64,000 bases of DNA from Candidatus Eremiobacteria bacterium (GTDB lineage Bacteria; Vulcanimicrobiota; Vulcanimicrobiia; Vulcanimicrobiales; Vulcanimicrobiaceae). The stretch is taken from the NCBI GenBank assembly GCA_963758295.1, contig CAVWUU010000003.1, positions 64,001 through 128,000 on the forward strand. Direction: 5' to 3'. Each line of letters starts with the position of its first letter. Within the stretch, counting starts at the first letter, position 1. The translations under genes were made by a program, and so were the position numbers. Below, one piece after another: positions 5,188 through 54,752 of this stretch. The notes under the pieces were generated by a model. It saw only the letters and a list, made by a program, of their open reading frames with translations. It did not search any database and was not told the origin of the DNA.

Positions 5188-5272
5188 GCAACGCGTATCT
5201 TGCCGTGGGGGACGCAACGCTTCCTTCCCCGATCCTTACATCCAAAATAACGAGCGCTTAACATGCGCCCGC

Positions 5273-8219: not shown

Positions 8220-8223
8220 CTCG

Positions 8224-10683: not shown

Positions 10684-10694
10684 TACCGGGAAGT

Positions 10695-10724
10695 GAAAAC
10701 CGCCTCGTTATCGAGACGGCTTTC
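10695..10724. terminator. Intrinsic terminator-like hairpin (pairs better on the minus strand)
   Basis: GAAAACCGCCTCG-TTAT-CGAGACGGCTTTC; two mismatches become G-U pairs on the minus strand. Confidence 0.6.
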
Positions 10725-11119
10725 GTCGTTTACTCCCCAGATGGAACATCATGTGGGAGATCGCCGAAGGGTGTAGTTTCTTCGTTCTCCATGACTCCAT
10801 CGTATCCAAATGAGCGTTAACGAAACCTCATTAGGACTTTAAGCCCCACGTGACGGAGCCTTGCTACGAGTGGCTCACGATCGTCGCGCTTGGATGCGAT
10901 GAAGCCGCGGCATCGTCATAACGACCGGCGATCTCACCAAATGCGCGTCAACGGCATCGAAGCAGCGGGTCTGCTTGCCTTTGTCGACCGTAAAACGGAA
11001 AGAGCCATAGCTCCAGTGTTTGTCCGCAATCGGACTGCGAACGTGCAATGCCGTTTTGCTGTATCGGGCGTCGGGTATTGCCGTAGCGCATCCCAAGCCG
11101 ATGTAGAGGTCTCCACGAA

Positions 11120-11852: not shown

Positions 11853-11928
11853 CGCAGTATCGGAATGGCGGATCGCCGGGTGTCGCGTCCAGCCGTATTC
11901 CGCGCAAGTCGTCTTTGGAGCAGCATCT

Positions 11929-12687: not shown

Positions 12688-12694
12688 GTGAATC

Positions 12695-13418
12695 GTGAAA
12701 TACGAATGGAACGCACGCGTATTAGTAATCCTAGGTGCATTACTGCTCGCCTCGTGCGGCGGCGGAGCCGGCGGACCCGCAAACAATAACGGCACGGGCC
12801 TCCCGGCTCCCGGCACGCCGTCGAATGCTAACCCCGAAATTTCCTCGGTCGGTGCGGGGCCGTACAAACAGCTGGATCGTTTGAATCGTCCGGCCGTAAA
12901 CGAAGTGTTTGCAACGTTTGCGGAGCATCAGGGGAACAATACCGATACGCCAAACGATGATGCGAAGATGCTTGGCCCGCAAATCATGGCGTTCATGACG
13001 AACGTCGGCGGCCGCAGCACCTCAATCGCATCGGTCGAGCGAGCCGTACTCACGCCTGACGTGCAAATAGCCGACTTGTCGGGAACGCAGCAACGCTTGC
13101 ATCGGCAAAGCCCCGGGGACGTGCAACAATTATCTTGGCGTCGAGACGAAGGGCGCAACCCAAATGCCGGCTGGATTGAAACCATTCGGTGGCCGTGCTC
13201 TTACCGACGATATCGTTTCCATCTCTCTCGGAACGATCTTCGGAAATACCATTCCGGCTCTGAAACTCGCGCCTGACGACAACAAGGAATCGGACGGACG
13301 CGCCGATGCGTCGTTTCCGTCCGGACATCGTCCCAACCTCACAACCGATAACGTCACCTGGCAAACGGCCCCGAAGCACTTCACCACGACGTTCCCCTAC
13401 CTTGGAGCACCGCGGTAA
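12695..13418 (+). CDS. DUF4331 C-terminal-half lipoprotein (frameshift near 13088)
   Basis: Lipobox LASC; QLDRLNRPAVNE; after the shift YLGVETKG, FGGRALTDD, FPYLGAP, matching the C-half of 17253..18530. Confidence 0.75.
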
Positions 13419-13420
13419 CA

Positions 13421-18754: not shown

Positions 18755-18782
18755 TTAACGAACGGCGTCGTCTTTCAGATTT
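18755..18782 (-). promoter_or_regulatory. Predicted ECF promoter, copy 4
   Basis: Minus strand AAATCT-N16-CGTTAA ending 8 nt before ATG 18746. Confidence 0.6.
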
Positions 18783-18819
18783 ACTTGCTAATCATACGAA
18801 ACCCGGGTATTAAAACTCG

Positions 18820-19362
18820 GTGAGCGCCGTTGCGGAGATCAAAGACGACTTCGAGCTTTTCTACCGGCAATATCGGCCGCTCGTTTATGCCGTCGCTTTC
18901 AAAATCGTCCGAAACGCGCTTGACGCTGAAGACACCGTGCAAACGGTCTTCCTTAAAGTATGGAGCCGGCCCGGCGCATATCGCGGAGGAAACATCGAGA
19001 GCTGGCTCACTACGGTTACGAAGAACGCTTCGCTCGATTGCGTGCGACAATCGTGGCGTGTGAGCCCGTTCGCCTCTGCCGATGGGTATGCTGGCCGCCT
19101 TTCGCCGGGCGAAGACCTCCGGACCCGCGACTGCCGGGCGGCGGAAGATGAGGCCGTGCATCGCATCTCGGTCGCCGCGGTAATGAATGCCCTTGCGGAC
19201 CTCTGTCCCGAACAACGCGCCGCGATTGTAGCGGCCTTTGTGAAACAACAAACCCACCGGGGCATAGCCGACGGATCTTGTTTACCGCTCGGAACCGTGA
19301 AGACGCGCATTCGTTCGGGACTCGCGAAGCTGCGCCGTCGCTTCTCCGAAGAAGCGCCATAA
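18820..19362 (+). CDS. ECF sigma factor (SigK-like)
   Basis: Region 2 DAEDTVQTVFLKVW..SWL..N..D; region 4 LPLGTVKTRIRSGL. Confidence 0.92.
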   Translation: MSAVAEIKDDFELFYRQYRPLVYAVAFKIVRNALDAEDTVQTVFLKVWSRPGAYRGGNIESWLTTVTKNASLDCVRQSWRVSPFASADGYAGRLSPGEDLRTRDCRAAEDEAVHRISVAAVMNALADLCPEQRAAIVAAFVKQQTHRGIADGSCLPLGTVKTRIRSGLAKLRRRFSEEAP

Positions 19363-30949: not shown

Positions 30950-31692
30950 CCATCCGTGGTGATCGCGCCTCTTGCCTGACGCTCCAGCTCGGTGCTCAGA
31001 CGTGGCTCTTTGCGGTCGCGCGCGGGTTCGGCGCCATCGACGGATCGGGGACGGCCCCTGCGGCGCTTGGACGCATTCGCTCCGAATTCGACCGCCGCTC
31101 GAAGAGCGAACGGTTCCGGCGCGCGCTGGACCGGCCGCAGCCGGCGGCTACCGCGATGCTTGGCGTCCTGTCGCGGGTCAACGCCGATTTGTTCTCTCGT
31201 AGCGCCGCGCACGACGATTACATCACCGCGGGCTGCTCGTTCTCCGCCGCGCTCATCGTCCGGGGCCGCGCCTACATCATTCACTCGGGCGGCACGGCCG
31301 CGTACTTGGCACACGGCGGCGAGCTTCGCCCGCTGACGCGGGACGACGCGCTGGAGGCCGCGGGATTTCCCGTTTTAGCTCGTGCTCTCGGTACTTCGAG
31401 TTCTCTCGACGTCTCGGTTTCGAGCATCGGCGTGGAAGCCGGCGACATGGTCATTTTGATGGCGCATCGGGTCGCCGGCGACTTGGATCGGCAAGCACTG
31501 ATCGCGCACGTAGAAGGCGCAGGTCCGGGCGAGCACGTGCTGGTCATCCGGTTCGACGCGAGCGATCGCGCATTGGAAGACGCACTTTTCGTTGATCTCA
31601 AACCCAAACACAATCCATCCTGGGCGCGCATCGCGATGAGCGCGGGCGCGGCGCTATTGGCGATACTTTCCGCGGTCGCGTGGGCGCAGTAG
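30940..31692 (+). CDS. PP2C/PstP-like protein lacking catalytic aspartates, C-terminal TM
   Basis: [36 protein letters not shown] align with PPM motifs; sits in the pstP position; GTG start at 30940. Confidence 0.75.
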
Positions 31693-32939
31693 CCGTCTTC
31701 GCGCGCCGCCTTGTCCCCATGGTCGCCGCACTTGCCGTGTCCGCGCTGTTGCTTTCGTTTGCGCCTCCGCACACGCTCGGTCCGGCGTGGCTGTTGGGAT
31801 TACTCGCGGTCTTGTCTCTGGGATGGGTGGCATGGCAGCCGTCGGCGACGACGCGCGACGACATTTTGCCGGCGCTTGCCGTCGTGCTGGGTTCGCTAGG
31901 ACTGGTACTGGTCGCGCGACTCTCGCCCGATCTCGCGCAAAAGCAACAGTGGTGGCTGATGATTTCGCTCGTGCTCGCCATCGGCGCAACGCCGGCGTTC
32001 ACGCAATTCCGGCGTTTCGCAGCGTATAAGTACTTGTGGGTCGTGGGATCGCTCGTGCTCTTCGTCTTGCTGATTATTTTCGGACAAGAAGTAAATGGCG
32101 CGAAACTCTGGATCAAACTGGGTCCGATTCAGTACGAGCCGATCGAACTGATCAAGCTGTTCATCGTATTCTTCCTGGCGGCGTATCTCGCCGAAACAGC
32201 CGACGTCATTGCGGCGGCGCGGCCGTGGTCCGTGCGCGCGAATTTAAAGTATCTCGGTCCGCTGTTTTTAGGCTGGGGCGCTTCGATGGCGATCCTCGTG
32301 TTGCAGCGCGATCTCGGTATGGCCACCTTGCTGCTGGCAACCTTTGCGGCGCTGCTGTACGTGGCGACACGGCGCTTGGATATCGTGATCGGCGGTATAG
32401 CGATCTTCGCGCTTGCGGCGTTCTGGGCGGTGCACCACTATCCGTACGTGCAAACCCGTATCGCGGTATGGCGCGATCCGTTCAGCGATCCTCTCGGTTC
32501 GGGGTATCAGTCCTCGCAAGCGTATTACGGTATCGCGGCGGGCGGGTTGTTCGGGACGGGATTCCAGCTCGGCCATCCGCGCTTCATTCCCGATGTGGCG
32601 ACGGACTATATTTACGCCGCCTTTTGCGAAGAGTTCGGGTTCATCGGCGCGCTCGCGGTACTCGGCATTTTTCTGGCGCTCGTACGGCGCATTTTCGCGG
32701 TCGGAACGGAACAGCCGGATCTCTATTCAAAACTTCTGGCGGCAGGCATGGCGGCCACACTGGGCTTTCAAATCTTCATTATCGTCGGCGGCGTTATCGG
32801 CGTCTTTCCGCTTACCGGTATCACGCTGCCGTTCATGTCGTACGGCGGCAGTTCACTCGTCGCTAACTTCTTGCTCGTCGCGCTCGTATGGGCGATGAGC
32901 GGCCGCGTATGCGCACCGCTTCGCTCTCCGTCGTCATAA
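31680..32939 (+). CDS. rodA: SEDS peptidoglycan polymerase (RodA/FtsW)
   Basis: NGAKLW, QRDLG, GYQ, TDY, PLTGITLPFMSYGGSS; fha-pstP-rodA synteny. Confidence 0.88.
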   Translation: MGAVAVFARRLVPMVAALAVSALLLSFAPPHTLGPAWLLGLLAVLSLGWVAWQPSATTRDDILPALAVVLGSLGLVLVARLSPDLAQKQQWWLMISLVLAIGATPAFTQFRRFAAYKYLWVVGSLVLFVLLIIFGQEVNGAKLWIKLGPIQYEPIELIKLFIVFFLAAYLAETADVIAAARPWSVRANLKYLGPLFLGWGASMAILVLQRDLGMATLLLATFAALLYVATRRLDIVIGGIAIFALAAFWAVHHYPYVQTRIAVWRDPFSDPLGSGYQSSQAYYGIAAGGLFGTGFQLGHPRFIPDVATDYIYAAFCEEFGFIGALAVLGIFLALVRRIFAVGTEQPDLYSKLLAAGMAATLGFQIFIIVGGVIGVFPLTGITLPFMSYGGSSLVANFLLVALVWAMSGRVCAPLRSPSS

Positions 32940-33709: not shown

Positions 33710-33785
33710 CGTTTCGCAGGCCATGCCGTTCGCGTCCGCGTACTGGCCGGAAAAGGAAATTCGGAGGAGTGAAAGGAGCGTCCCA

Positions 33786-34283
33786 ATGACTCGCATCAGC
33801 AAGGTTGGGCTAGTCGGATTAGCAGTAGTTTTTGCGCTTTCCGCGTGTTCCAAGGGCAGCCAAACCAGCAGTACCAGCACGACAACGACCGAGACGAGCG
33901 CCGCGCCGGAAGCGTCCTCGACCGTGGCCGCAACGGCCGGCGGTGAAATGGCAGCCGGTAATGCCGGCGACGGCGCCAAGATTTATCAAACGAATTGTTC
34001 GAGTTGCCATCAGGCAACGGGACAAGGCGTACCCGGCACGTTTCCGCCTCTTGCCGGAAATCCGGTTGTCCAGGGCGATGCTAAAACCGTCATTCACATC
34101 ATCAAGTACGGCCTCAACGGCAAAGTCGCCGTGCACGGAGCGACGTATAACGGTATGATGCCCGCGTGGGGGACGCAGCTCTCCAATGCCGACATTGCCT
34201 CCGTTGCAACGTACGTGCGCTCTTCGTGGGGGAACAAAGCTTCAGCGATCAGCGAAGCGCAAGTAAAGGCCGTTTCGAAGTAA
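33786..34283 (+). CDS. Lipoprotein c-type cytochrome (monoheme)
   Basis: Lipobox LSAC, S/T linker, CSSCH, FPPLA, GMMP, YVRSSWGN. Confidence 0.92.
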   Translation: MTRISKVGLVGLAVVFALSACSKGSQTSSTSTTTTETSAAPEASSTVAATAGGEMAAGNAGDGAKIYQTNCSSCHQATGQGVPGTFPPLAGNPVVQGDAKTVIHIIKYGLNGKVAVHGATYNGMMPAWGTQLSNADIASVATYVRSSWGNKASAISEAQVKAVSK

Positions 34284-34290
34284 ATCGAAT

Positions 34291-35070
34291 TTAGCTGAAG
34301 CGGACGGTGGTCATCGAAATCGAGCCGCCGTCCATGCCTTCCACGGGAAACGTTACGCGATCGCTCTCATCGGATGCGCCCAGAACGTAGAGAAGTGGAA
34401 GATAGTGATCGGGAGTCGGCGCCGATAGCATCGCGTCGTCACCGAGCGATTCATAATCGATCAAGGGATCAAAATTGCGCGCGAGCAACAGCTCGCGCGC
34501 TGTTTTTTCAAAGCGAACCGCCCAATCGAACGGCTCCGCGGGATGCCTCCCCCACGCATAGGCATGCAGGTTATGGATCAGATTGCCGCTCGCCGCAATC
34601 AGCACGCCTTCATCGCGTAAGGGGCGCAAACGTGTGCCGAGTTCGTAGTGATAAATAGGATCCTTCGTCTCGTCGATGCTGAGCTGCACGACCGGAACAT
34701 CGGCGTTCGGATAAGCATGAACCAGCACGGACCACGCTCCGTGGTCCAGGCCCCAGCGCGAATCCGGAACGGCCGCTGCCGGAGAAAGCAATTCGATGAC
34801 CCGGTCGACCAAAGCGCGATCGCCCGGTGCCGGATACTCGACTTCGTACAACGGCCGCGGAAAACCGCCGAAATCGTGAATCGTGCGAGGCCGCTCGTTG
34901 TTCGTGAGCATGGTTCCGGGCACGTACCAGTGCGCCGAAACCATAAGAATCGCTCGCGGCTTTTCGAACGATTCACCGATTTGGCGCCACGCCCGCGTGT
35001 AGGCGTTTTCATCGATGGCGTTCATAGGATTGCCATGTCCGAAGAAAATCGCCGGCATGCGTTGCGTCAT
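34291..35070 (-). CDS. ygiD: 4,5-DOPA extradiol dioxygenase (LigB family)
   Basis: GHGNPMNA, SAHW, IHDFGGFP, WGLDHG, SGN..HNL, PTPDHYLP. Confidence 0.92.
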   Translation of the reverse strand: MTQRMPAIFFGHGNPMNAIDENAYTRAWRQIGESFEKPRAILMVSAHWYVPGTMLTNNERPRTIHDFGGFPRPLYEVEYPAPGDRALVDRVIELLSPAAAVPDSRWGLDHGAWSVLVHAYPNADVPVVQLSIDETKDPIYHYELGTRLRPLRDEGVLIAASGNLIHNLHAYAWGRHPAEPFDWAVRFEKTARELLLARNFDPLIDYESLGDDAMLSAPTPDHYLPLLYVLGASDESDRVTFPVEGMDGGSISMTTVRFS

Positions 35071-35161
35071 CTACCAATGCTCCCCATGCCTTCGTCGAAG
35101 GAAACCGCCTCGAAATGCCCATTCGCCACGGCGGAGGATTCTCGTGAATCTTTGACGGTCG

Positions 35162-36568
35162 TTAGAGCTTGCAGATCGTAACGCTGAGCGTGGTGGAGCG
35201 CGGTTTAGGATTTTGCGGGTCGCTGTAATCGGTGATGAAGCGTTTATCTTCGGTTGCCGTGATGGAACACGTTCCGGATCCGGTCGGCTTTATGTCTAGT
35301 TCCGCGTTCGGACCGATGGCGAAGCCGGCGTTGTCGGTATATCCCGGCGGCGCGTCGTTGTACGAGCCGGCACGCGTCTCGATCGTGCACGGACCTTGCA
35401 GCGTCATATGAAAGACGCCGTCCCAAGGCACCGGCGCCGCCGGCGTACCCGGCTTGTACGTCGGGTCGTCAGCAATGAGCACGTGGAAGTTTTCGCGATC
35501 GCCTACTCTGCTCTGCGGCGGCCCCTGAGGATTGTTGCCGACGGCGTTGCAATCGATGCTCTCTTTCGCCGTAACGCAGCTGCGTAAATCTTGAACGTTC
35601 CCTGCAATGAAATTGTCGTACGTCGCCGGGACGGAGAATTGCGGGACGTTGCACGAGTTGTCGAGCGTGCATTCGAAGCCTTGCGCGGCCCCGTCCGGCT
35701 CAAAAACCGCGCGATCCGGTTTCGGCTTAACGATGTCGAACGTGACGGTTTGCCCGAATTGAATCGATCCCCCGTTGGCCGGCGTGATGTGACAGAAAAA
35801 CGATGGAATGCCGACGAGCGGCACGCCTTGGAGTGCGGGGTCGAGCATTCCGGTCGAAGTAAACGCGTTGAAACAACCCACCGAATACGTCGAAACACCG
35901 GAAGACGAGCTGTAGGTGAACTGCAAACCGCTGGGAAGGTTCGGCGCGTTCGCCGTGAGGTTGGTCGTTGAACCCGGCGCGACGGGGAAAGCGACGTCCG
36001 AAGTAGACTTTTCCGGCAAAACGGCGATTTGCGACGTGGTCAACGGCGCCAGCACGATATCCTTTACGACCGCTTTGAAGACGAGCTTTCGTCCGTCGAC
36101 GGTCGCATCGCCCAATTTAATGGGCGAGACGACTTGCGGCTGAGGAACGACTTGATAGAAGCTTGCGCCGAAGAGCGGGTTTTCCGGCGTGCAATGCAGC
36201 GTGACTTTGAAGCTGTCGATATCGATCGTTATGGGAAACGGAAACGGGTTGCGCAGCCGAATCGCGGGGACCGGCGGACACGTGGGCTTCTCGTGCATCG
36301 TTGTCAGGCGCGGCGATCGGCTCGTCGCGGCCAGGTCCGAATAGAAGCCGATTGCGGACGAGGGCAGCGCGGTGTTCGATCGGATGGAGATCGTCGCACT
36401 CGTTCCGTCCGTCGCGCTCACGGCGTACGAATGACGGATGCCGCCTTGCGCGGATTGCGCCTGTTCTGTCTGCGTTTGCGGACCGATGGCGTTTGAGCCG
36501 CTGCCGCAAGACGCGGCCAACGGCAGAAGAGCGGCAAGAACGAAGGCGCGATATCGATAGCACAGCAT
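35162..36568 (-). CDS. Hypothetical Cys-rich lipoprotein
   Basis: Lipobox AASC-GSG; long beta-rich ORF. Confidence 0.7.
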   Translation of the reverse strand: MLCYRYRAFVLAALLPLAASCGSGSNAIGPQTQTEQAQSAQGGIRHSYAVSATDGTSATISIRSNTALPSSAIGFYSDLAATSRSPRLTTMHEKPTCPPVPAIRLRNPFPFPITIDIDSFKVTLHCTPENPLFGASFYQVVPQPQVVSPIKLGDATVDGRKLVFKAVVKDIVLAPLTTSQIAVLPEKSTSDVAFPVAPGSTTNLTANAPNLPSGLQFTYSSSSGVSTYSVGCFNAFTSTGMLDPALQGVPLVGIPSFFCHITPANGGSIQFGQTVTFDIVKPKPDRAVFEPDGAAQGFECTLDNSCNVPQFSVPATYDNFIAGNVQDLRSCVTAKESIDCNAVGNNPQGPPQSRVGDRENFHVLIADDPTYKPGTPAAPVPWDGVFHMTLQGPCTIETRAGSYNDAPPGYTDNAGFAIGPNAELDIKPTGSGTCSITATEDKRFITDYSDPQNPKPRSTTLSVTICKL

Positions 36569-36661
36569 AGCCGTAACCTAACAGCGGTCCCGCGAGCGCC
36601 TCTAGAGGCTTTCGTCCCAGTTTTGTTGCTTTGGCGCTCGCGGCAAGTCATAATTAGCCCG

Positions 36662-39472
36662 ATGGACATGGTCGCCGCTGTTCCGCAGCAAGCGGAAGAG
36701 CGTGTGCTTCCTTCCGGCAATGTCACGTTTCTATTTACGGATATTGTCGGCAGCACGGTGCGCTGGGAGAGCGATCCGGAGACGATGCGTCTGGACGTTC
36801 GCCGGCATGATATTCTCCTGCGCCGAGCGATCGAGTCGAACGGCGGGGTTGTCTTTAAAACGGTCGGCGACGCGTTTTGCGCCGCTTTTTCGGAGTTGCA
36901 AAATGCCATGCGCGCCGCAATCGACGCGCAACTCGCCATTTCGGACGAACGCTTTTCTTGCGACGGCGGCATTTCCGTTCGTATGGCGCTTCACGCCGGC
37001 AACGCCGAAGAGCGCGATTCCGATTACTTCGGTCCTACGTTGAATCGCATTGCCCGGTTGCTTGCAATCGGGCACGGCGGGCAGATTTTGCTCTCGAACG
37101 CGGTTGTCGAGTCTGCCGGCGGTGCATATCCCTGCGGCGGCAGCGCGCGCGATCTCGGCTTTCACCGGCTGAAAGACCTGACGGCAGCCGAACACGTGTT
37201 TCAGTTGCACGTTCCCGAGCTTATTTCCGAATTCGAACCGCTCCGATCGCTGAACTATCTCAGTAATAATCTCCCCGAGCAGACAACGAGTTTCGTGGGG
37301 CGCGAAGAAGACGTTGCGGAGATTCGCTTACTCGTGCAGCAGCATCGTTTAGTTACCTTAAGCGGAGCGGGCGGCATCGGAAAAACGCGGTGTGCGCTTC
37401 AGGCGGGCGCGGAATTACTGGAAGAGTATGCTGACGGCGTCTGGTTTATCGACCTCGCGCCGGTTCGCGATCCCATGTTGGTAGCCGGCACGATCGGGCG
37501 CGTCTTCGAATTACGCGAGACCCCGAACCAATCGCTTTACGACATGTTGACGCACCATCTGAAGAACAAGCAGTTGCTGCTAATCTTCGATAACTGCGAG
37601 CAAGTGGTAACCGAGGCTTCGCGGATCGCGGCGTCATTGTTGCGCGAATGTCCGGATGTTCGCATTCTTTCGACGAGCCGTGAGGCGCTCAACCTTAGCG
37701 GGGAAAAGCTGCATCGAATTCCGTCGCTTTGCGTGCCGCCCGTCGAAGCGAAGGCCCTGACGGCATTGACGGCGCTTGGATACAGCGCCGTCGCGCTTTT
37801 TGAGACTCGCGCTCAAAATGCAAATCCGCTCTTTACCGTGCGCGATGCAAACGCCGGCATCATCGCGCAGATCTGTCGCCGGCTCGATGGAATTCCGCTA
37901 GCGATCGAACTGGCCGCGGCTCGCCTACGCGTGCTCGGGCCCGTGCAACTCCTGGAGAAGCTGAACGAACGCTTCCGTGTGCTCGCCGGTGGAGATCGCA
38001 CGGCACTCCCGCGTCAGCAAACGATGCGCGCGCTGATTGACTGGAGCTACGATCTTTTGTGCGAACGGGAGCAATGGGTTTTCCAACAGATTTCGATCTT
38101 TGCCGACGGTTTCACGATCGAAACTGCGGCCGGCGTGTGCGCGAATGACGAGCTTGACGAACTCGACCTGCTGGACGTTCTGCAATCGCTGTGCGATAAA
38201 TCCCTGATGCTCGCCGAGCCGCAGTGCGAAACGATGCGGTACCGCCTGCTCGAGTCGATGAGCGCTTACGGCCGCGAAAAACTCGCGGCTTCGGGCAACG
38301 CAAATGACGCGGCGCAACGCCACGCCGAAACGTTCGCGCAATTCGTCGAACGGCTCGAAGATCAACGCGACACCTTGACGCCGCGCGAATGGCTCATGCA
38401 GGGCGAGGCCGAGATCGAGAATTTGCGCGCGGCACTGACGTTCTCGTTCTCCGGGAAGGGCAATCCGCTCGAGGGCCAACGGATCGCGGCCGTGCTCCCG
38501 CGCATCTTCGGTGTCCTCGCGGCAACCGAAGGTCTGCGATGGGTTCATACCGCGATCCAACGAGTGACCGAGGCCACGCCGCGTGAGGTCGTCGCCGGGC
38601 TTGAACTGGCGCACGCAAGCCTTGCGTCCGTGTTCAATCAGTTCGGCAACGCCCTTTCGGCGGCTCAACGCGCGCTGGATACGTACATCGCGCTGGATCG
38701 CGCGGCAGGCGTCGCCGATGCATTGCGCCTTGCGGGCCGGTCGCTTGTCTATCTCGGGCGGGTCGAGGAAGGTGAAAATTTGCTGCAAGAAGCGCTGAAT
38801 AATCGCCGCGCCGGCGGCTCTTCGCGCATCGGAAGCATTCTCGCCGACCTTGCGGTGGCGCGCGCATATCAGAACGATTTGCCGGGTGCCCGAACGCTCT
38901 TTGCGCGCGCTTCGGCAATGTACGAGGAGCGCGAAGACATCTCGAAGATCGCGGTAACCGCCGCCACGTTGGCCGAAGCCGAATTTTCCGGCGGAAATGC
39001 GCGTGAAGCCGTGCGGCTTGCCGAAAATGCGTTGGCGAGCGCGCGGATGTTGGGACGCTTCCGCACGGCCGAGGTCATCTTGGGAAATCTCGCCGCGTAC
39101 AACATTGAGCTGGGTGAATATGCTGCCGCTCGCGCTTCCGCTTGTGAAGCGCTGGAGATTTCGCAGACTCAAACCGACGCGATCTCGGTCGTCTTCGGCA
39201 TTCAACATCTGGCGGCGGTGGCAGCGCTCAGCGCTTGGGACGACGACGAAACAGCGATCGAACAACGAGTGCGCGCCGCCCGTCTGCTGGGCTTCGTCCA
39301 AAGGCGCCTTGCCGTTCTGGAAGTCGAACGCGAATACACCGAACAGTGCGGATACACGAAACTGCTAGCCGCCTTGTGCGACCTTTTTGAGCCCGAAGAT
39401 CTTCAGCCGCTCATGGACGACGGCGCCGGTTGGAGCGAAGAAAAGGCCCTGTCGGAGGCATTTCGCATTTGA
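36662..39472 (+). CDS. Class III nucleotide cyclase + STAND (NB-ARC-like) ATPase + TPR-like region
   Basis: FTDIVGST, GDAF, YFGPTLNRIARL; GAGGIGKT, FDNCE, LDGIPLAIELAA. Confidence 0.9.
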   Translation: MDMVAAVPQQAEERVLPSGNVTFLFTDIVGSTVRWESDPETMRLDVRRHDILLRRAIESNGGVVFKTVGDAFCAAFSELQNAMRAAIDAQLAISDERFSCDGGISVRMALHAGNAEERDSDYFGPTLNRIARLLAIGHGGQILLSNAVVESAGGAYPCGGSARDLGFHRLKDLTAAEHVFQLHVPELISEFEPLRSLNYLSNNLPEQTTSFVGREEDVAEIRLLVQQHRLVTLSGAGGIGKTRCALQAGAELLEEYADGVWFIDLAPVRDPMLVAGTIGRVFELRETPNQSLYDMLTHHLKNKQLLLIFDNCEQVVTEASRIAASLLRECPDVRILSTSREALNLSGEKLHRIPSLCVPPVEAKALTALTALGYSAVALFETRAQNANPLFTVRDANAGIIAQICRRLDGIPLAIELAAARLRVLGPVQLLEKLNERFRVLAGGDRTALPRQQTMRALIDWSYDLLCEREQWVFQQISIFADGFTIETAAGVCANDELDELDLLDVLQSLCDKSLMLAEPQCETMRYRLLESMSAYGREKLAASGNANDAAQRHAETFAQFVERLEDQRDTLTPREWLMQGEAEIENLRAALTFSFSGKGNPLEGQRIAAVLPRIFGVLAATEGLRWVHTAIQRVTEATPREVVAGLELAHASLASVFNQFGNALSAAQRALDTYIALDRAAGVADALRLAGRSLVYLGRVEEGENLLQEALNNRRAGGSSRIGSILADLAVARAYQNDLPGARTLFARASAMYEEREDISKIAVTAATLAEAEFSGGNAREAVRLAENALASARMLGRFRTAEVILGNLAAYNIELGEYAAARASACEALEISQTQTDAISVVFGIQHLAAVAALSAWDDDETAIEQRVRAARLLGFVQRRLAVLEVEREYTEQCGYTKLLAALCDLFEPEDLQPLMDDGAGWSEEKALSEAFRI

Positions 39473-40728
39473 GCGAAGACCGGCGTGCGGTCGCGCGGGT
39501 GCGGCCGCACAACCCGATGCCGGAATCGCGCTTCGAAGTCCTCGCGTTATTTACCGGTGCGATGGTTGGCGCATCGCTTTTCTTGATGGCTACGGGCCCG
39601 CTGCTGCCGTTTCTCGGCGCGGCGTTTCACCTGAGCCAAACGCAACTCGGCCTCGTGCTTTCGGTGCAGATGAGCGGCTCCGTCTTAATGACTGCTGTCG
39701 CGGGCATGTTGACGGATCGCTTCGGCGATAAAGCGCTCGTACTCTGGACGGGCGTATTCATGGGCATCTCGCTCATTGCTGCGGCGTTCGTGCACGACTT
39801 CGGCTGGGTGCTTTTCTGGCTGCTGATGTACGGGATCGGTTTTGCGGCCGTGACGCCTTCGGGAAGTCACGCAATCATCTACTTTTTCAAGAAAAAAGAA
39901 CGCGGCTTGGCTATGGGCATCCGTCAGTGCGGCGTGCCCGCCGCGGGCGTTCTCGGCTCCATTCTGCTTCCGGCTGTAGCGGCGCGGTGGCACTACGATG
40001 CGGCTTTCATCGTCGCCGGTGTCGCAACCATCGTTTCGTGTTGTGCAGCATCGCTCTTATACCGCGAGCCCGTGGAGCTGGAAGGCGAACGCGTTTCCGT
40101 AAACGCGATGTTCGCCGAAATGGCCGTCATGGTTCGCAATGTGCGACTGCTTTTGCTCACGCTCACGTCCATGGGGCTGGTGTGCGGCCAGGTCGCCGTA
40201 ATGGCGTTTTTAACGCTGACGCTCGTTCGCGAAACGACAATAGGGCTTTTCGCTTGCGTGAGTCTCTTCACGCTTTCGCAATTCGCGGCCATCGGAGGCC
40301 GAATTTTCTGGGGATGGAGCAGCGATAAGCTTTTCGCCGGTAGCCGCGCACTGCCGCTCGGGGCCGTCGGCGTTCTTACCGGGCTGCTCGCGCTTTGCAC
40401 GTCATTTATCAGTCCGGTGACCGCCGCTTGGATTCTCGCAGTCCTAGCCGCCCTGCTAGGGTTCAGCGCCGAGGGATGGTTTGGCGTAGCGGTACTCGCA
40501 ATCGCCGAGGTCGGAGGAGAAGAGCACAGTGGAAGTGCTCTCGGCGCAGCGCTGACGTTCATTTTCATTGCCGGTTGTCTTGCGCCGATCGTTATCGGCG
40601 CCGTTTCGGAAGTCCACGGTTATGCCTTTGCGTGGCGCGGCGTCGCCTTCGTTCAGGCACTCGCCGTAATTCCGGCACTTTTCGCAACCGCGTATATGCG
40701 GCGCGTTTCGGAGACCGCATCGTCATAG
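39469..40728 (+). CDS. MFS transporter
   Basis: GMLTDRFG motif A, ERGLAMG, 12 TM; start uncertain (39469 or 39517). Confidence 0.88.
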   Translation: MSEDRRAVARVRPHNPMPESRFEVLALFTGAMVGASLFLMATGPLLPFLGAAFHLSQTQLGLVLSVQMSGSVLMTAVAGMLTDRFGDKALVLWTGVFMGISLIAAAFVHDFGWVLFWLLMYGIGFAAVTPSGSHAIIYFFKKKERGLAMGIRQCGVPAAGVLGSILLPAVAARWHYDAAFIVAGVATIVSCCAASLLYREPVELEGERVSVNAMFAEMAVMVRNVRLLLLTLTSMGLVCGQVAVMAFLTLTLVRETTIGLFACVSLFTLSQFAAIGGRIFWGWSSDKLFAGSRALPLGAVGVLTGLLALCTSFISPVTAAWILAVLAALLGFSAEGWFGVAVLAIAEVGGEEHSGSALGAALTFIFIAGCLAPIVIGAVSEVHGYAFAWRGVAFVQALAVIPALFATAYMRRVSETASS

Positions 40729-40793
40729 CAAAAAAAAGCTCCGCAATGCGAAGCTCTTTCAAGTGGAACGATTAACGTGCGTGAGTCTCTTGT

Positions 40794-41312
40794 CTACCGC
40801 ACGGTCACCGACGACGAACTCTTAACCCAAGCCGGAAACTTCTTGTCGGGCGTAATCGTCACGTCTTTGCCCTTAACCATGTTATGTGCGAAAAGCCCGA
40901 GCGGTCCCAACGCGACGGTAGCCGCGATAGTGGCAGTCGAGGCCTTTCCCTTTTCAGCATTGCCGCTCACGCTGCTGTCTTCCGTAAGTCGAATATTCGA
41001 TCCGTCGACGGCATGAATCGTATCGAAGGCGAGCGTTATCTCGCCGGCGCTTTTGCCTTGCGCCTTCGCGGCTTTGACGACGTGGCCGGAGCCGAGTGCG
41101 CCCTTTGCAATGACAACGTGTCCGCCGGCTATGACGGGCGCTGCGGCCTCAAACGCAAACGATTGACCGGCGACGGCGGTGCCTGATGATACCGGCTTCA
41201 AGACATGCACTTGTACCTGCGTTCCGACCGCGACGCTCTGCGTTGCGGCTAATGCCGTTAGCGGCAGAGTAAATGCCAGAAATGCACCGGTAATGGACGA
41301 TAGAATCCTCAT
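40794..41312 (-). CDS. Hypothetical secreted beta-rich protein
   Basis: GGAGG SD, signal peptide ending ALA; SSGTA..GQ.F..AVDG..KGKDVTI pattern. Confidence 0.7.
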   Translation of the reverse strand: MRILSSITGAFLAFTLPLTALAATQSVAVGTQVQVHVLKPVSSGTAVAGQSFAFEAAAPVIAGGHVVIAKGALGSGHVVKAAKAQGKSAGEITLAFDTIHAVDGSNIRLTEDSSVSGNAEKGKASTATIAATVALGPLGLFAHNMVKGKDVTITPDKKFPAWVKSSSSVTVR

Positions 41313-41460
41313 GGTGTTCCTCCAATTCAGCATTACCACGGGACGGAGAACCGAAGAGTCAACAACTACGAGAGATTTGGTACGGTTGATTACCTTCGGT
41401 GGGCTCCCGCCGGATGCCGCTTTCTCCGTTCGGGCAACAGTGCGCTTGCCGGCATCGGAA

Positions 41461-41556
41461 TTACGTCGTCAACGTCGACGCTCGTAAGCGCTCTTTTGTT
41501 GCGCGGGGCCAATGTGAAGTGCGGTCATTGACCTCCACAAACGCACGCAGGCCCTC
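41461..41556 (-). pseudogene. Displaced, decayed 3' fragment of the ATLF-like peptidase gene (copy C)
   Basis: Translates EGLRAFVEVNDRTSHWPRATKERLR, homologous to the C-terminus of 43800..44378. Confidence 0.85.
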
Positions 41557-41605
41557 TCTGCTTCTCGCTGGCGGGTGCTCGCGATAACAGGTCGAAGCGG
41601 CCAAG

Positions 41606-42859
41606 ATGCGGCCACGTCTTATGATGATCGTGGTCCTGATTGGGCTTTCGATCTTCATCAACTACATCGATCGCGGAAACTTAGCGACCGCGGCGACGCT
41701 CGTTGAAAAAGAACTCCATCTCTCGCCATCGCAGCTGGGCTTTTTACTGACGGCGTTCTTCATCACCTATATGCCGATGCAGCTCGTGGTAGGCTGGCTG
41801 GTCGACAAATACACTGCGAGTCGGGTGCTCGTCGTGGGATTCTTCATTTGGTCACTAGCGACATTACTTAGCGCATTTGCGGTCGGGTTCGTGTGGCTCT
41901 TTGCTTGCAGGCTGCTGCTCGGGCTGGGCGAGTCCGTCTCGTTCCCATCGATGGCAAAGCTTTTAGCAGAAAACGTAAACGAAAAGCAGCGTTGTTTCGC
42001 CAACGGTATTATTCAGGCGGGCCTGGCTTTCGGGTCGGCCTTCGGAATCTTCGTTGGTAGCGCGGTGATCGCGGAACACGGTTGGCGCCCGTTCTTCATT
42101 GGTTGCGGCGTAGTCAGCATGCTGTGGATCGTCGCCTGGCAGTTCGCATCGCGTGGGCACCTTCGTAAACGAAGCGCGGACGTGCGAGCGGCGGAAACGC
42201 CTGGCTTCGACCTCATTCTGCGCGAGCGGACGCTTTGGGGCGCATCCCTCGGGCATTTCGGCGGTAATCTCGTACTGTATTTCACGATCAGCTGGATTCC
42301 GTACTATCTAGTGCACGAACGCGGCTGGTCGATATCGCAGATGGGAATTATCGCGGGGTCTGCATCGCTGGCTGCTGGGTTAACGATGATTGTTTCCGGG
42401 CTCGTCTCCGATCACGCAATCCGCCACGGCGCGTCGCCGACCTTTGTAAGGAAGACGGCGTTTGCGACTGGCGGGCTGGGCGGCGCAATTTCGCTGCTCG
42501 GGTGCGGATATTCGCACGGTGCGAATGCTTCTGCAGCATGGCTTCTGGCTGCGGGGTTCTTCAGTGGACTTGCCGCTCTCAATACGTTCGTCGTGGCACA
42601 AACAAAGGCGGGAGACGCGACGGGGAAGTGGGTCGGCATTCAAAATATGTTAGCCAATGCCGCCGGCCTGATCGCTCCCTTGGTCACCGGAGTGCTGGTC
42701 GAGGCGACCGGAAACTTCAAGCTGCCATTTGCTTTGGCCGCACTCGCGGCGCTCGGGAGCGGTCTATCATGGACGCTGCTGACGGGAAAGATCGAACCGA
42801 TCGATTGGAAAGCACGAGCAATTGCTCGCTCTTACGCGCTTGCAGTGGTCGTTAAATAG
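41606..42859 (+). CDS. MFS transporter (ACS/D-galactonate-like)
   Basis: INYIDRGNL, RLLLGLGE, 12 TM. Confidence 0.9.
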   Translation: MRPRLMMIVVLIGLSIFINYIDRGNLATAATLVEKELHLSPSQLGFLLTAFFITYMPMQLVVGWLVDKYTASRVLVVGFFIWSLATLLSAFAVGFVWLFACRLLLGLGESVSFPSMAKLLAENVNEKQRCFANGIIQAGLAFGSAFGIFVGSAVIAEHGWRPFFIGCGVVSMLWIVAWQFASRGHLRKRSADVRAAETPGFDLILRERTLWGASLGHFGGNLVLYFTISWIPYYLVHERGWSISQMGIIAGSASLAAGLTMIVSGLVSDHAIRHGASPTFVRKTAFATGGLGGAISLLGCGYSHGANASAAWLLAAGFFSGLAALNTFVVAQTKAGDATGKWVGIQNMLANAAGLIAPLVTGVLVEATGNFKLPFALAALAALGSGLSWTLLTGKIEPIDWKARAIARSYALAVVVK

Positions 42860-42892
42860 GTTCCGATGGATGTGGTGGCGCACGTCTCGCGA

Positions 42893-43039
42893 CTACTTGG
42901 CAGCACTGAACGTGCAACGAAACAATCGATTTACGTACTCAAAGAGCATCGGATCGACCTTTCGCAAACGCCACTTCGTCGCCCGTGGCCAGTGCGACGT
43001 CACGTCGTTGATCTCAACAAAGGCGCGGAGCGCCTCTGC
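42893..43039 (-). pseudogene. Displaced 3' fragment of the ATLF-like peptidase gene (copy B)
   Basis: 147 nt, same length to stop as 43800..43946; 37/48 aa identical. Confidence 0.92.
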
Positions 43040-43156
43040 AATTATGTGGAATTGGCTGAACCGCGCCGCGCTGCGGGAGGGCCCTACAAACAGTCTCTTC
43101 GAAAGCAAGGTCCGCCCGCTGAGGCGGAGCTGTGGCGCCTACTTTTCGACGCGCGA

Positions 43157-43609
43157 TTACATCGCGGGTTTAACGGGGAGGTTTGTCTGCGGACCTTGAC
43201 CGCCGACCTGTTCGATAGTTTCGCCCTGGGCGATCGACCAGTGGTGCACGCCGGCCGGAACCATGATGAACGAACCTGTCGGCAACACTTTCGCGTTCGC
43301 TTTGTTCACTACGTCGCCGGTGCCGAAGAGAAGGGTACCTTGAATGACGGTAATGTACTCGTCGTGTGCATGGTAGTGCGGCTTGTTCGTGTATCCGTCC
43401 GGCATTTTAACGCGTGCAATTGCGTTGCCCGATTTATTCCGATCACCAACGAACGTCGTAAGGAAAAGGCCTTTTGATGCACCCGTTCCCGCCACCCAGT
43501 GTAGATTGTCGGGGGTGAAGGTCAGGGGATTTCCCGACCCGGCCGCGAGAGCGGCGCCTGCGCCAAATGCCAAGCTGAGTCCGATAAGGATTGAGGCAAG
43601 CAGTTTCAT
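43157..43609 (-). CDS. Secreted cupin domain protein (DUF4437-like)
   Basis: Signal peptide; PHYHAHDEYITVIQG; PAGVHH. Confidence 0.85.
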   Translation of the reverse strand: MKLLASILIGLSLAFGAGAALAAGSGNPLTFTPDNLHWVAGTGASKGLFLTTFVGDRNKSGNAIARVKMPDGYTNKPHYHAHDEYITVIQGTLLFGTGDVVNKANAKVLPTGSFIMVPAGVHHWSIAQGETIEQVGGQGPQTNLPVKPAM

Positions 43610-43799
43610 CGATTGAAGCTCCTCTGTTCCGATTGTTGCAGCATATGTGACACAACGGGGTAAGACGCCGAAGAAAACCAAGGCGTTCTAGGCGGATCGT
43701 AGCACCGCGCCTACGGTTAAGGAACTGCCGATATGCCCATTTAACGGGCGCAGCAATCAGAAGCTGCCTTGGCAGCCTTGCTTTAACGCACACGTCGTT

Positions 43800-44378
43800 C
43801 TAGGCCGCGACGGTAAACGCACATCGGAACAGGCACTCGACGTAGTCGTAGAGCTGCGGGTCCACGTTTCGTAATCGAATCTTCGTTGCGCGCGGCCAAT
43901 GCGACGTCACATCATTGATCTCCACAAATGCGCGGAGCGCCTCAGCAAGATATTCATCGATTCCGGTTGCGGCATACGGCGTTACGAATGCCCGTGCGTT
44001 AGCGAACAGACGGCGCAACTCCGGATCTACTCCGGAACGGTAGACGCCGCCGCCTAATGCGCAATCGAGCGCGTGGCCAAATTCGTGAGCGACGGTCATC
44101 GGGCTGCGGGAACGAAGATACACCGTGCGTTCTTCGACGACGAACAAGCCGGCCGGCGGGGCAGGCCACGCGTCCACGTTGATGCCAAGGCGCGCAAGCG
44201 CCGGTGATGCGTTGCAGTATTGCTCGTGCTTTTCGAGCGGCGAAATCCGGATGCCGCCGTCAAGCGCAAAGCGAAGCGCTCCCGCTCCGAATCGTTCGAG
44301 CGTCTCGACGATTGCGTCGTGCGATTTCACCGAACCCCTCGAGATTAGAGCAAGTGCAAGACCAGCGCAATCGGACAT
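43800..44378 (-). CDS. ATLF/MtfA-like zinc metallopeptidase
   Basis: HEFGH zinc motif followed by YAAT..DEYLAE and DP.LY.Y. Confidence 0.8.
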   Translation of the reverse strand: MSDCAGLALALISRGSVKSHDAIVETLERFGAGALRFALDGGIRISPLEKHEQYCNASPALARLGINVDAWPAPPAGLFVVEERTVYLRSRSPMTVAHEFGHALDCALGGGVYRSGVDPELRRLFANARAFVTPYAATGIDEYLAEALRAFVEINDVTSHWPRATKIRLRNVDPQLYDYVECLFRCAFTVAA

Positions 44379-44483
44379 AGGGCACCAGTCTCGCATCTCG
44401 ATGTTTTTGTACTATTGCCGCCTTACGTCCAAAGCGTTCGCACCGCCGCGAAACAAACTCCCGCGGGCAGCCGTAGCTGTGGC

Positions 44484-52930: not shown

Positions 52931-54752
52931 ATGAGCACTTACCAAGCACCGTTGCGAGACATGCAGTTCGTTCTACACGAACTCGCCGGAATTGAAGAAA
53001 TCGCGAAGCTTCCGGGATGCGAAGACACGCTGGACGTCGTTGATTCGATTCTCGAAGAAGCCGGTTCGTTTGCGAGCGGCGTGCTCGATCCGTTGAACCG
53101 TACCGCCGACAAAGAGGGCTGCACCTGGAACAACGGCGCGGTCACTACGCCGAAGGGCTTCAAAGAAGCCTATAAAAAGTTCGCCGACGCGGGTTGGATC
53201 GGTTTGCCGGTGCCGCCGGAATACGGCGGTCAAGGATTGCCGCAACTCCTGCTCGGACCGACGCTCGAAATGTGGAACGCGTCGAACATCGGCTTTGCAA
53301 ACGGGCCGCTTTTGAACCAAGGTTCCATCGAAGCGATCGAACTCGTCGGCTCGGAAGAACAGAAGAAGCGTTGGATTCCAAATCTCGTTTCCGGTAAGTG
53401 GACCGGCACGATGAATCTTACCGAACCGCAAGCCGGCTCGGATCTCGCGCAAGTACGCACCAAAGCCGTTCCGGATGGCGATCACTATTTGCTCACCGGT
53501 GAAAAGATTTTCATCACGTTCGGCGAGCATGATATGGCGGAGAACATCGTTCACCTCGTCCTGGCGCGTCTTCCGGATGCGCCCGAGGGCGTAAAGGGCA
53601 TTTCCCTCTTCATCGTGCCAAAGATTCTTGTCGAACGCCGATGGTTCGCTCGGTGAGAAGAACGACGTCGTTTGCGCCGGCATCGAGCACAAGCTCGGCA
53701 TCAACGGCAATCCGACATGTACGATGAAGTTCGGCGAATCCGGTAAGGGCGCCGTCGGCTATCTCGTCGGCGAAGCGAATCGCGGTCTCGAGTATATGTT
53801 CATCATGATGAACGCCGCGCGTTTCTCGGTTGGCGTGCAAGGTTTCGCCGTCGCCGATCGTGCGTACCAGGCTTCGCTCGAGTATGCTAAGGATCGCGTG
53901 CAAATGGCCGACGCCGCATCCCGTAGCAAGACGCCCGTCCGCATCATCGAGCATCCCGACGTGCGCCGCATGCTGATGTGGCAAAAGGCGAACATCGAAG
54001 CGATGCGCGCCCTTTCGTACGTTACCGCTGCGTCGCTCGACCTGGCGCACAAACACCCCGACGAAAAAGTGCGCAAGCAGCACAAGGCATTCGTGGAACT
54101 CATGATTCCGGTCGTCAAGGGCTGGTGCACGGAGAACTCCGTCGAGCTCTGTTCGACCGCGTTGCAAATTTTCGGCGGCATGGGTTACGTTGAAGAAACC
54201 GGCATTGCGCAACAGTATCGCGACGTGCGCATCACCACGATCTATGAAGGCACGACCGGGATCCAAGCGCTGGATCTCGTCGGCCGTAAGCTGATTCGGG
54301 ACATGGGCGCCACCGCGACCACCGTGATCAAAGACATGGAGAAATTTGCGAAGGAAGCCGTCGCAAACGATAACGCAGACGTTAAAGCGGTCGGCGAAGC
54401 CCTCCTCAAGGGCATCGCCACGCTTGCGGAAGTTTCGCAATGGATCGGAATGAACGCCATGGGCGACCTGCGCAAAGCCTTCGCGTGCTCGGTGCCCTAT
54501 CTCAAGCTTTGGGGCGTTGTTGCCGGCGGCTGGCAGATGGCACGCGCCGCGAAAGTCGCCGCAGAGAAAATCGCAGCCGGCGACAAAGATCCGTTCTACC
54601 AGGCAAAACTCACGACGGCGAAGTTTTACGCATCGCACGTGCTCACGCAAGGTGCGTGGTACAAGCGCCAGATCATCGACGGTTCCGGCGACGTAATGAC
54701 GCTGCCTGAAGAAGCATTCGAACTCGATCGTAAATTGGCGGTTACTGCATAA
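52931..54752 (+). CDS. Acyl-CoA dehydrogenase (frameshift near 53632)
   Basis: MNLTEPQAGSD, KIFIT, KGISLF, GGMGY, IYEGTTGIQ. Confidence 0.93.

Follow-up and report, generated by a model that had tools for sequence, protein, structure and literature searches.

How do copies of one gene's end come to lie between unrelated genes, all facing the same way? The question is raised by a locus in the assembly of a Candidatus Eremiobacteria bacterium (G000; 3,030,452 bases in 6 contigs, 82% complete), in which we analysed a stretch of 64,000 nucleotides, here called the window (positions 64001-128000 of contig C3). It holds a gene that we call P (43800..44396, minus strand), an open reading frame (ORF) for a 198-aa zincin-like peptidase with an HExxH motif (HEFGH), and downstream of P the last 149 nt of its coding sequence recur. 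An earlier note on this DNA had proposed that incoming DNA recombined repeatedly at one point in the gene, each time supplying a new C-terminus and pushing the old one downstream. Having compared the locus with its relatives, we consider that it probably is a stack of attachment (att) sites, formed by serial site-specific insertion of integrase-less cassettes at a fixed site in P.

The 3' end that P currently uses, fragment A (43800..43948, minus strand; nhmmer E 4.2e-35), is part of a cassette that carries a cupin gene. Fragment B (42893..43041, minus strand) is a displaced former 3' end with a frame that is open through to the stop, and it forms the left end of a second cassette, which carries a gene for a major facilitator superfamily (MFS) transporter. 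The scores for fragment B are far beyond chance, both at the protein level (tblastn E 2.2e-20) and with a DNA profile that includes a 12-nt sequence described below (nhmmer E 1.7e-38). Compared over 43800-43946 and 42893-43039, A and B share 37/48 residues and 106/147 nt, lie at equal distance to the stop, and differ in their first 22 codons by 9 synonymous and 0 non-synonymous changes. These values reproduce exactly those given in the earlier note, and the longest identical run in register is GAGGCGCTCCGCGC (14 nt). The likeness begins at TTGC (43948 and 43041), at the second base of codon 150, two bases before the starting point near the residues EYLAE that had been described. A third and more decayed copy had also been reported, and we recover it as fragment C (41461..41562, minus strand) by both tblastn (E 3.4e-7, with 78% identity across residues 151-177) and nhmmer (E 9e-18 at 41474-41556). 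This older displaced end is truncated and has lost the 12-nt sequence, which is kept by its intact orthologue in the related locus L049 (12145-12302). The copies are co-oriented, and searches of all 3,030,452 bases by tblastn, blastn and a DNA repeat profile returned A, B and C as the only copies of the P end in the genome.

One gene occupies each interval between the copies, again as first described. The cargo of the first cassette is a 174-aa cupin-domain protein (43157..43681, minus strand; Pfam Cupin_1, Cupin_2 and DUF4437), and orthologues of this cassette are present in G003 (locus L048) and in L049. The second cassette encodes a 417-aa MFS transporter (41606..42859, plus strand; Pfam MFS_1 E 7e-55), which clusters with genes of L049 (10835-12088) and L052 (12910-14190) and is merely 25% identical to the product of the neighbouring MFS gene at 39430-40728. 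Misassembly of the region was considered and rejected: the order P, cupin, B, MFS, C recurs at 92-96% identity in the independent assembly that provides L049, and parts of it are found in contigs from soil sequencing runs. We also set aside a diversity-generating retroelement, as A and B differ only synonymously in their conserved half and up to five copies occur with unrelated cargo between them; no search for a reverse transcriptase was made.

To place the locus among its relatives, we compared 79 loci, each reaching 8 kb to either side of a P homologue. Extra P fragments were found in 18 of these, up to five in one locus (five in L052, four in L061); all lie downstream of P in the same orientation, and most begin at residue 150. 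In the 16 array loci of the clade the displaced copies all break at the same base, in codon 150. The break is marked by a 12-mer, AATTCCACATAA, which directly precedes each displaced copy in the relatives, including the lone fragment of G002, and also precedes fragment B of the window, where it forms the right end of the first cassette (43042..43053, minus strand; an exact match, and the sole one in the genome). Intact P genes read GA(A/G)TA(T/C)(T/C) where displaced copies have this element-side arm (P arm). In the window the corresponding native left flank of the site (B arm) is TCGATGAATATC, within codons 146-150 (43949..43960, minus strand), and these are the last bases of P without a counterpart in the displaced copies. 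With at most one mismatch allowed, the 12-mer has 26 matches in 16 of the 79 loci; 26/26 lie on the strand of P, downstream of it, and are followed by sequence resembling TTGCNGAGG. Conservation is at least 0.9 at each position of the arm and reaches the background level 2-3 nt upstream, at the end of the cargo.

The 21-mer AATTCCACATAATTGCCGAGG, which comprises arm and core, is found in 35/401 genomes of the phylum at up to three mismatches and in 15/401 at up to two, compared with 2/401 for a reversed control pattern. Counted here are the unpublished G024 and G059, both of which match at three mismatches only. Matches are concentrated in one family (27/296 genomes) and in two genera (10/18 and 3/6), and on contigs with several copies these are always clustered on one strand. 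No occurrence outside P arrays was seen in the genomes searched. Among 2.9 million viral contigs there were 0 matches to the site sequence that might have revealed a free element, and among metagenome contigs there were 11, 9 of them in P arrays and 2 in low-GC sequence that is unrelated. One low-GC metagenome contig, L142, from an unrelated organism, holds a two-copy repeat (at 1322 and 2583) containing AAT(T/C)CCACATAATT(G/A)CAGAG, with no P fragment after it; its likeness to the site is probably due to chance. A candidate free site at C3:133431, which matches a 16-mer with 2 mismatches and is the sole other one in G000, was rejected, since no fragment follows it and the profile search is empty there.

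These observations bear on an alternative by which P was duplicated together with its neighbours and the extra copies then lost their 5' parts. Two full-length P genes do occur in some relatives: L050 has paralogs at 4472-5035 and 8001-8576, 3 kb apart, and G019, G023 and G038 have two copies each. Moreover, tblastn extends fragment B weakly to residue 129. A locus from another family of the class, L045 (G047; 4389-6918), shows a 296-aa P homologue, two genes for DUF4386 membrane proteins and a P 3' fragment that begins earlier, at about residue 126-131, and lacks the 12-mer. Such a fragment could be counted in favour of eroded paralogs, and we regard the G047 arrangement as a separate kind of event, or as one at a different site. 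Within the clade, however, the breakpoint is base-identical in all displaced copies, with a foreign 12-mer to mark it. Upstream of B lies no decayed P but the 3' flank of the cupin gene, the intervening genes are mutually unrelated, and one cassette is seen both in the gene and displaced. Eroded full-length copies with varying breakpoints, which the earlier note had named as the outcome that would speak against it, were not seen among the 16 array loci, which share a single breakpoint base, and we regard erosion of tandem paralogs as very improbable.

The cassette just mentioned provides a direct view of displacement. In both L053 and L060 a 2.9-kb unit, whose ORFs encode 133 and 764 aa, begins inside an intact P, one base into codon 150, whereas in L061 the same unit lies displaced behind a newer 3.3-kb insert, with the 12-mer in front of it. 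The L061 copy (11882-14755) is 91.0% identical to that of L053 (8431-11296) and 91.9% identical to that of L060 (8431-11317). Its displaced fragment matches the in-gene end of L053 at 135/147 nt and that of L060 at 130/147 nt, compared with 108/147 nt for the end that P of L061 uses at present; the gene bodies of P in L061 and the other two loci are identical at 359-380/429 nt. Between L053 and L060, the cassette-borne end agrees at 135/147 nt and the gene body at 348/429 nt, and in each of four genomes the cassette is followed by a different neighbour. That the end is more alike than the body and that the neighbours vary together indicate independent acquisition of the cassette by several lineages. 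In short, the sequence comparisons demonstrate that cassettes are exchanged between lineages.

The cassettes of the window behave in the same way. Its MFS cassette (43056-41571, comprising the 12-mer, fragment B and the MFS gene) is 80.6% identical to L052 12733-14198, which lies between other cassettes there. Two contigs from soil runs, X2 and X3, carry both fragment A and the cupin gene, the former with 3 differences in 150 nt and the latter with 38 in 753 nt, and at the position equal to 43948 the body of P is replaced by TTATGTGGAATTG, the reversed 12-mer. Because the 12-mer and not the body of P precedes fragment A in these contigs, the cupin cassette has been displaced by another unit in that organism. 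Together with the 2.9-kb unit, this bears out the proposal that incoming DNA entered repeatedly at a single position, gave P a new C-terminus and shifted the old end downstream. Units move as packets of 0.9-3 kb, and their cargo of one to three genes includes transporters, cupin proteins, glyoxalase, hydrolases and regulators. Cargo is found in both orientations, along the array for the cupin gene of the window and opposite to it for the MFS gene, and both orientations occur in relatives too. The newest cassette of L061 contains an insertion sequence of the IS3 family (9808-11018; ORFs with rve and HTH_Tnp_1 domains), which is the only transposase among 58 ORFs of 13 array loci.

A layout of this kind might also arise from homologous recombination alone. 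Partial duplications flanking captured DNA arise by single crossover in other systems, and circles that carry a P end could integrate by a Campbell-type single crossover within the 147 nt of homology, with the 12-mer inherited from one ancestral junction. The gross layout would be the same, and the fragments are long enough for RecA. This explanation does not, however, account for a non-coding 12-mer that is near-invariant (at least 0.9 per position) while adjoining synonymous sites vary freely, or for the sharp end of conservation 2-3 nt upstream, seen in 16 junctions whose cargo is for the most part unrelated. Neighbouring fragments are just 73-80% alike and would be a poor RecA substrate. 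At the solo sites of L060, L053 and L064, moreover, the arm and ~20 nt have been kept after the rest of the fragment was lost. Finally, RecA cannot yield four inverted junctions with one 6-nt offset, described next, and we judge that it is improbable as the sole agent.

The left edge of the exchanged segment can be read directly, as genes have TAT(C/T) and displaced copies have CATAA before the common TTGC. The right edge is provided by four inverse junctions in four genomes of four genera (G005, G006, G160 and G238), in each of which P runs to codon 151 and is followed by 6 nt and the reversed arm. They read gatgaatatt-TTGCCG-TTATGTGGAATa in G005, gacgaatact-TCGCCG-TTATGTGGAATtg in G006, gacgagtatt-TCGCCG-TTATGTGGAATa in G160 and gacgaatatt-TCGCTG-TTATGTAGAATc in G238, and at each the reading frame of P matches through residue 151 and then ends. 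On the opposite strand, the junctions run from the 3' end of the arm, CACATAA, straight into the 5' edge of the complementary 6-mer. Three of the four were supplied by a pattern search that returned 26 places in 22/401 genomes; among the 16 places examined, 3 were real and 13 were due to chance, and the remaining ten include one in the unpublished genome G374. At one of the four junction loci, L143 (G006 C165; 8096-8966), the inverted junction terminates a 5'-truncated second copy of P (residues 27-151), which begins no more than ~10 nt after an intact P.

The four junctions share one 6-nt offset and are what would result if a 6-nt overlap was cut in both partners at its 5' edge on each strand and the partners were then joined the wrong way. 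On these sequences, the crossover would lie within the 6 nt TTGCNG, between the arm ending in CACATAA and AGGCGCT. In the window this region is TTGCTG in the gene (43943..43948, minus strand; its left edge is where the likeness between gene and displaced copy starts, and its right edge is set by the inverted junctions) and TTGCAG at the displaced site (43036..43041, minus strand; in the same register as the sites of relatives). Cuts staggered by 6 nt with a 5' overlap are the cleavage geometry of tyrosine recombinases, and we infer from the junctions that the enzyme probably belongs to this class. A serine recombinase acting at the central GC dinucleotide was rejected, as it would give TTGC-AATTATGTGG, and all four junctions instead read TTGCCG-TTATGTGG or the TCGCNG equivalent.

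We regard it as established that insertion was serial and always at one base, that it replaces the end of the gene, that cassettes are modular and pass between lineages, and that the arm is conserved and the offset is 6 nt. The mechanism that we propose to connect them is as follows. Cassettes, which would be small circles or otherwise mobile, integrate one after another inside P, each consisting of the 6-nt crossover region, a substitute for the 49 codons at the 3' end of P, between one and three cargo genes in either orientation, and the 12-nt end AATTCCACATAA. Insertion would join the body of P to the gene end of the cassette, so that P stays whole, and would join the 12-nt arm of the cassette to the previous gene end, which shifts downstream and decays. 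The recombinase would act in trans, with no cassette encoding one. For the window, the order of arrival would be the unit to which C belongs, then the MFS cassette with B and then the cupin cassette with A. The array loci have an intact target with co-oriented displaced ends, a constant breakpoint with its arm, and a unit found both fused and displaced, all of which fit att-site stacking. An integrase in some of the units or beside the site, which would also be expected of such a stack, is missing from the ORFs searched, from the window contig and from the vicinity of the locus in five array genomes. The locus is thus a variant of known att-site stacking, as in the accretion of cis-mobilizable elements (CIMEs), ssrA islands and tycheposon islands, with no integrase in the units.

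Which enzyme, then, could move these cassettes? No integrase or resolvase domain (PF00589, PF00239) was found in 145 ORFs in and beside arrays, made up of 58 from 13 array loci, 57 from downstream of P in 11 further related loci and another 30, of which 26 come from seven metagenome loci. The idea of a hidden recombinase that recurs as a cassette protein was dropped after an all-versus-all BLAST of 98 array ORFs, which yielded clusters of orthologous cassettes only. The early remark that no integrase is in view extends to the whole of contig C3 and to every array examined. Elsewhere in G000 there is one intact Xer-like tyrosine recombinase gene (164 bits; C4:332523-333026) and a frameshifted copy on C1, and no serine recombinase was found in the assembly at its 82% completeness. 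An Xer-like gene is present in 5/5 other array genomes searched and is the sole recombinase type common to all. The other recombinases of these genomes are on different contigs or no closer than 165 kb, and in one of the five the Xer-like gene stands alone.

The arm itself offers a hint in the same direction. The best dif candidate of G000 is a single-copy palindrome, CTCTCCATAA-N6-TTATGGAGAC, located at C4:428584-428611, ~96 kb from the Xer-like gene, where it reads ACTCTCCATAA-TAATTC-TTATGGAGACA. It recurs as a single palindromic match in six other related genomes and, with a strict pattern, in 1/5 array genomes. The cassette arm ATTCCACATAA agrees with the candidate dif arm ACTCTCCATAA at 8/11 positions, with the inner 5 all matching, and stands in the same register against a 6-nt centre; 4 in 10,000 genome 11-mers do as well. 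Because the 12-mer resembles a dif arm that abuts a 6-nt centre, we take a chromosomal Xer-type recombinase as the first single candidate for the enzyme, tentatively and at less than an even chance. Canonical Xer sites have two arms, and what we find here is one dif-like arm beside a 6-nt centre. Nearly as likely as Xer is a dedicated integrase on a helper element that is missing from the assemblies, and an unrecognised enzyme takes the remaining probability.

The Xer candidate can be placed within a broader proposal, in which the locus would be an integron-like chromosomal platform for gene capture: the codon in P would serve as the proximal site, the half-dif-like 12-mer with a spare gene end as the cassette site, and the resident Xer or another unlinked tyrosine recombinase as the enzyme. 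We think this rather unlikely as a whole. If true, it would mean that integrase-free cassettes circulate among Eremiobacterota without dedicated mobile-element machinery.

A helper element would make the cassettes CIME remnants of larger integrative elements, or satellites of these. The integrase would then come from a helper (phage, plasmid or integrative element) whose target is this very site in P and which is missing from the metagenome-assembled genomes. The completeness of G000 (82%) leaves room for such an element, and one array genome, G404, has a small contig (C2) with three recombinase matches. This is also the textbook route to stacks of this kind: among the Dehalococcoides ssrA islands, 16 have an integration module and 15 do not (PMC3146451), and an accretion model exists for CIMEs (PMC5704250). 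Set against this, no array unit examined holds an integrase or a remnant of one, compared with about half in Dehalococcoides (PMC3146451). The 21-mer was seen nowhere else in the genomes searched and in none of the 2.9 million viral contigs, and 9/11 of the metagenome matches are P arrays. The units also travel as packets of 0.9-3 kb and so are not products of decay in situ. On balance a helper element is possible but doubtful.

Several observations count against serial site-specific insertion as we describe it, in addition to the fact that no enzyme has been identified in a genome that is 82% complete. Metagenome-assembled genomes often lose plasmids and phages. No excised circle or empty site was seen in the sequencing runs, which share at most 0.11 of sampled words and consist of contigs of relatives. 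The gene-side flanks TCGATGAATATC (left) and AGGCGCTCCGC (right) are unlike the dif arm, which tells against Xer in particular: with such flanks no site has more than one Xer-like arm, and at the target there is none. As the 6-mer is not a palindrome, antiparallel products such as the four inverted junctions should be rare for a tyrosine recombinase. The TTGCNG core is present in 14/16 array loci and in 18/63 others, a comparison confounded by kinship and by the possible origin of the core from cassettes. The right ends of cassettes are variable, often with deletions of the arm or of part of a fragment (L061 14750, L053 11313, and G003), so that some boundaries are imprecise. Finally, the difference between G003 and G000 over 40700-43091 has ends that lie off the sites, and soil contig X1 shows the same form. 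G003 belongs to the same genus, with a P that is 89% identical, and has the cupin cassette, a 55-nt fragment remnant and then the counterpart of the 39430-40728 gene. Because this difference ends away from the sites, ordinary deletion also shapes the arrays.

What does each insertion do to the target? A homologue of P was found in 59/61 related genomes, a tally that takes in the unpublished G004, G013, G024, G026, G033, G034, G048 and G059. P matches no Pfam or NCBIfam model at threshold and gives no significant sequence match in the PDB, where lethal factor is reached at E 1.5; the Pfam ATLF model scores the G047 homologue at E 0.055 (13.6 bits against a cut-off of 27.4). An AlphaFold model of P, built from 40 homologues (pLDDT 91.8, pTM 0.90), was compared by Foldseek and matched the catalytic domain of anthrax lethal factor and the Pro-Pro endopeptidases PPEP-1 (Zmp1), PPEP-2 and PPEP-3, with TM-scores of 0.64-0.70, E ~1e-5 and probability 1.0. 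The HEFGH motif (residues 104-108) is invariant across the 40 sequences. The predicted structure thus has the zincin fold of peptidase family M34, that of lethal factor and the Pro-Pro endopeptidases. The label "ATLF-like" given to the gene before is apt at the level of the fold, but by sequence the Pfam threshold is not reached. P is similar in size to the small PPEP enzymes, and nothing in the analysis points to a toxin.

In the model, codon 150 falls in the middle of helix 146-157, and HEFGH and the invariant residues Y141, D147 and E148 are encoded 5' of it. Residues 150-198 form the second half of this helix, a loop, and helices 172-178 and 180-197. As codon 150 lies mid-helix, each insertion would swap half of helix 146-157, the loop and the two C-terminal helices, in agreement on the predicted model with the suggestion that the C-terminal helices of the peptidase are exchanged. 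In L144 (G005 C5), an inverted cassette interrupts P at codon 151, the gene has later been frameshifted (5067-5489), and the old 3' end lies 13.3 kb downstream (18765-18902), behind a decayed arm. G002 has a displaced P fragment alone. Because P is broken in G005 and G002 shows a displaced fragment only, P is dispensable in some lineages.

Downstream of the cassettes, the window continues into an older variable stretch (34291..40728, no strand assigned) that holds a LigB-like gene, a 468-aa ORF, a STAND NTPase-cyclase gene and the second MFS gene, and ends at a cytochrome c gene (33723-34283). The FtsW gene of G000 lies at 31680-32939. In L071 (same contig as G004), cytochrome c and FtsW follow directly after P, and for this reason we consider the whole stretch of the window from 34.3 to 43.8 kb variable. 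A DNA profile of the repeat detected no further decayed P fragments in 34290-41460, and formation by the same cassette route is only a candidate origin for 34291..40728. Between this stretch and fragment C lies a 181-aa ORF (40794..41339, minus strand) with no Pfam or family match, within the 40700-43091 segment absent from G003 and from one soil contig; it is possibly the cargo of a third, older unit. The cyclase gene of the variable stretch (36623-39472) encodes a 949-aa protein in which TPR repeats and a STAND/NB-ARC NTPase accompany an adenylate/guanylate cyclase domain, and it is present in G003 as well. Elsewhere in the window, an acyl-CoA dehydrogenase is split between two overlapping ORFs (52931-54752), with the N-terminal and middle domains in 52931-53656 and the C-terminal domains in 53628-54752, possibly through a frameshift or a sequencing error.

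Eremiobacterota (WPS-2) are abundant uncultured soil bacteria. To our knowledge, gene exchange among them is essentially undescribed, and we found nothing relevant in the literature on Eremiobacterota and integrons. The locus provides a concrete route for such exchange, a hot spot behind a conserved gene that takes packets of one to three genes common to several lineages. For a system approached through sequence, its recombination site is unusually well defined, with a 12-nt arm, a mapped 6-nt crossover and a replaced gene end, and this makes the question of which enzyme moves integrase-less cassettes directly testable. If the host Xer is that enzyme, the reach of gene mobility driven by Xer would go beyond dif sites and plasmids and take in protein-coding genes.

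Replacement of a gene end at a fixed point has a precedent in the rhs and cdiA arrays, in which the 3' end is replaced at a fixed motif and the old end is left downstream; the tip there is a variable toxin domain with an immunity gene. In the P arrays, by contrast, the displaced tips are homologous and conserved (37/48 residues for A and B) and the cargo consists of unrelated accessory genes. Integrons, and clusters of attC sites lacking an integron integrase (CALINs), grow by serial insertion at a proximal site and consist of small promoter-poor units between sites, with cassettes that carry no enzyme. Serial proximal insertion and an enzyme not carried by the cassettes are features of the P arrays as well. 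No IntI stands beside the proximal site here, and the tyrosine recombinase matches of G000 are on C4 and C1 only and not on C3. A search for attC-type hairpins was also negative, as DNA folds of 19 junctions share just a 5-bp stem (CAATT/AATTG), with z-scores of -2.6 to +1.5. The P sites are thus defined by sequence and not by a folded attC, the cargo lies in both orientations, and the proximal site falls within a coding sequence that receives a new end from each cassette. The locus had been described as "integron-like or att-site stack", of which the second half holds, and the first holds only loosely, given the lack of IntI and of an attC hairpin and the mixed orientation of the cargo.

With respect to Xer, the integrative mobile elements exploiting Xer (IMEX) insert into dif, whereas the target here is a gene without a dif-like arm. 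Among systems in which a host enzyme moves the cassettes, the dif modules of Acinetobacter plasmids come nearest. They are reported to be small, to be bounded by short sites and to carry one to a few genes but no recombinase, and the host XerC/D is presumed to mobilise them. Those modules are reported to have complete 28-bp two-arm sites on both sides and to reside on plasmids, compared with one dif-like arm at most in the P arrays.

Other elements stack at att sites. Excerpts of the description of Prochlorococcus tycheposons (10.1101/2020.12.28.424599) report repeated integration at one site that pushes older elements inward, partial target copies that are scattered, niche-type cargo (transporters and assimilation genes) and targets in tRNA and tmRNA genes. 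The pushing of older elements is shared with the P arrays; the tyrosine (or serine) integrase of their own and the replication module by which those excerpts define tycheposons are both missing here. CIMEs of the ICESt1 type, according to passages of PMC5704250, have no genes for integration, retain att sites at the target's 3' end and accept newcomers at the site that contains the gene end. They are defined in the same passages as decayed integrative and conjugative elements or integrative and mobilizable elements beside a functional relative (PMC5704250), whereas no functional relative of the P cassettes was found in any genome and the units are seen moving as small packets.

Within these sources, the ssrA islands of Dehalococcoides are the closest described case. 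The account in PMC3146451 describes tandem islands downstream of a single-copy gene, split by direct repeats of its 3' end, with a copy number that differs among strains and with 15/31 islands lacking an integration module. A conserved 15-bp motif upstream of each repeat, which does not align with the gene, marks the insertion point. The target there is tmRNA, the repeat is 20 bp, and 16 islands encode the serine integrase DsiB (PMC3146451). The P arrays differ in having a protein-coding target of which 49 codons are replaced, no unit with an integrase and far smaller units (0.9-3 kb), and in a junction geometry that argues against a 2-nt centre of the serine type. What the two systems have in common is a series of tandem units, separated by repeats of the target gene's end, with a short motif upstream of each (PMC3146451).

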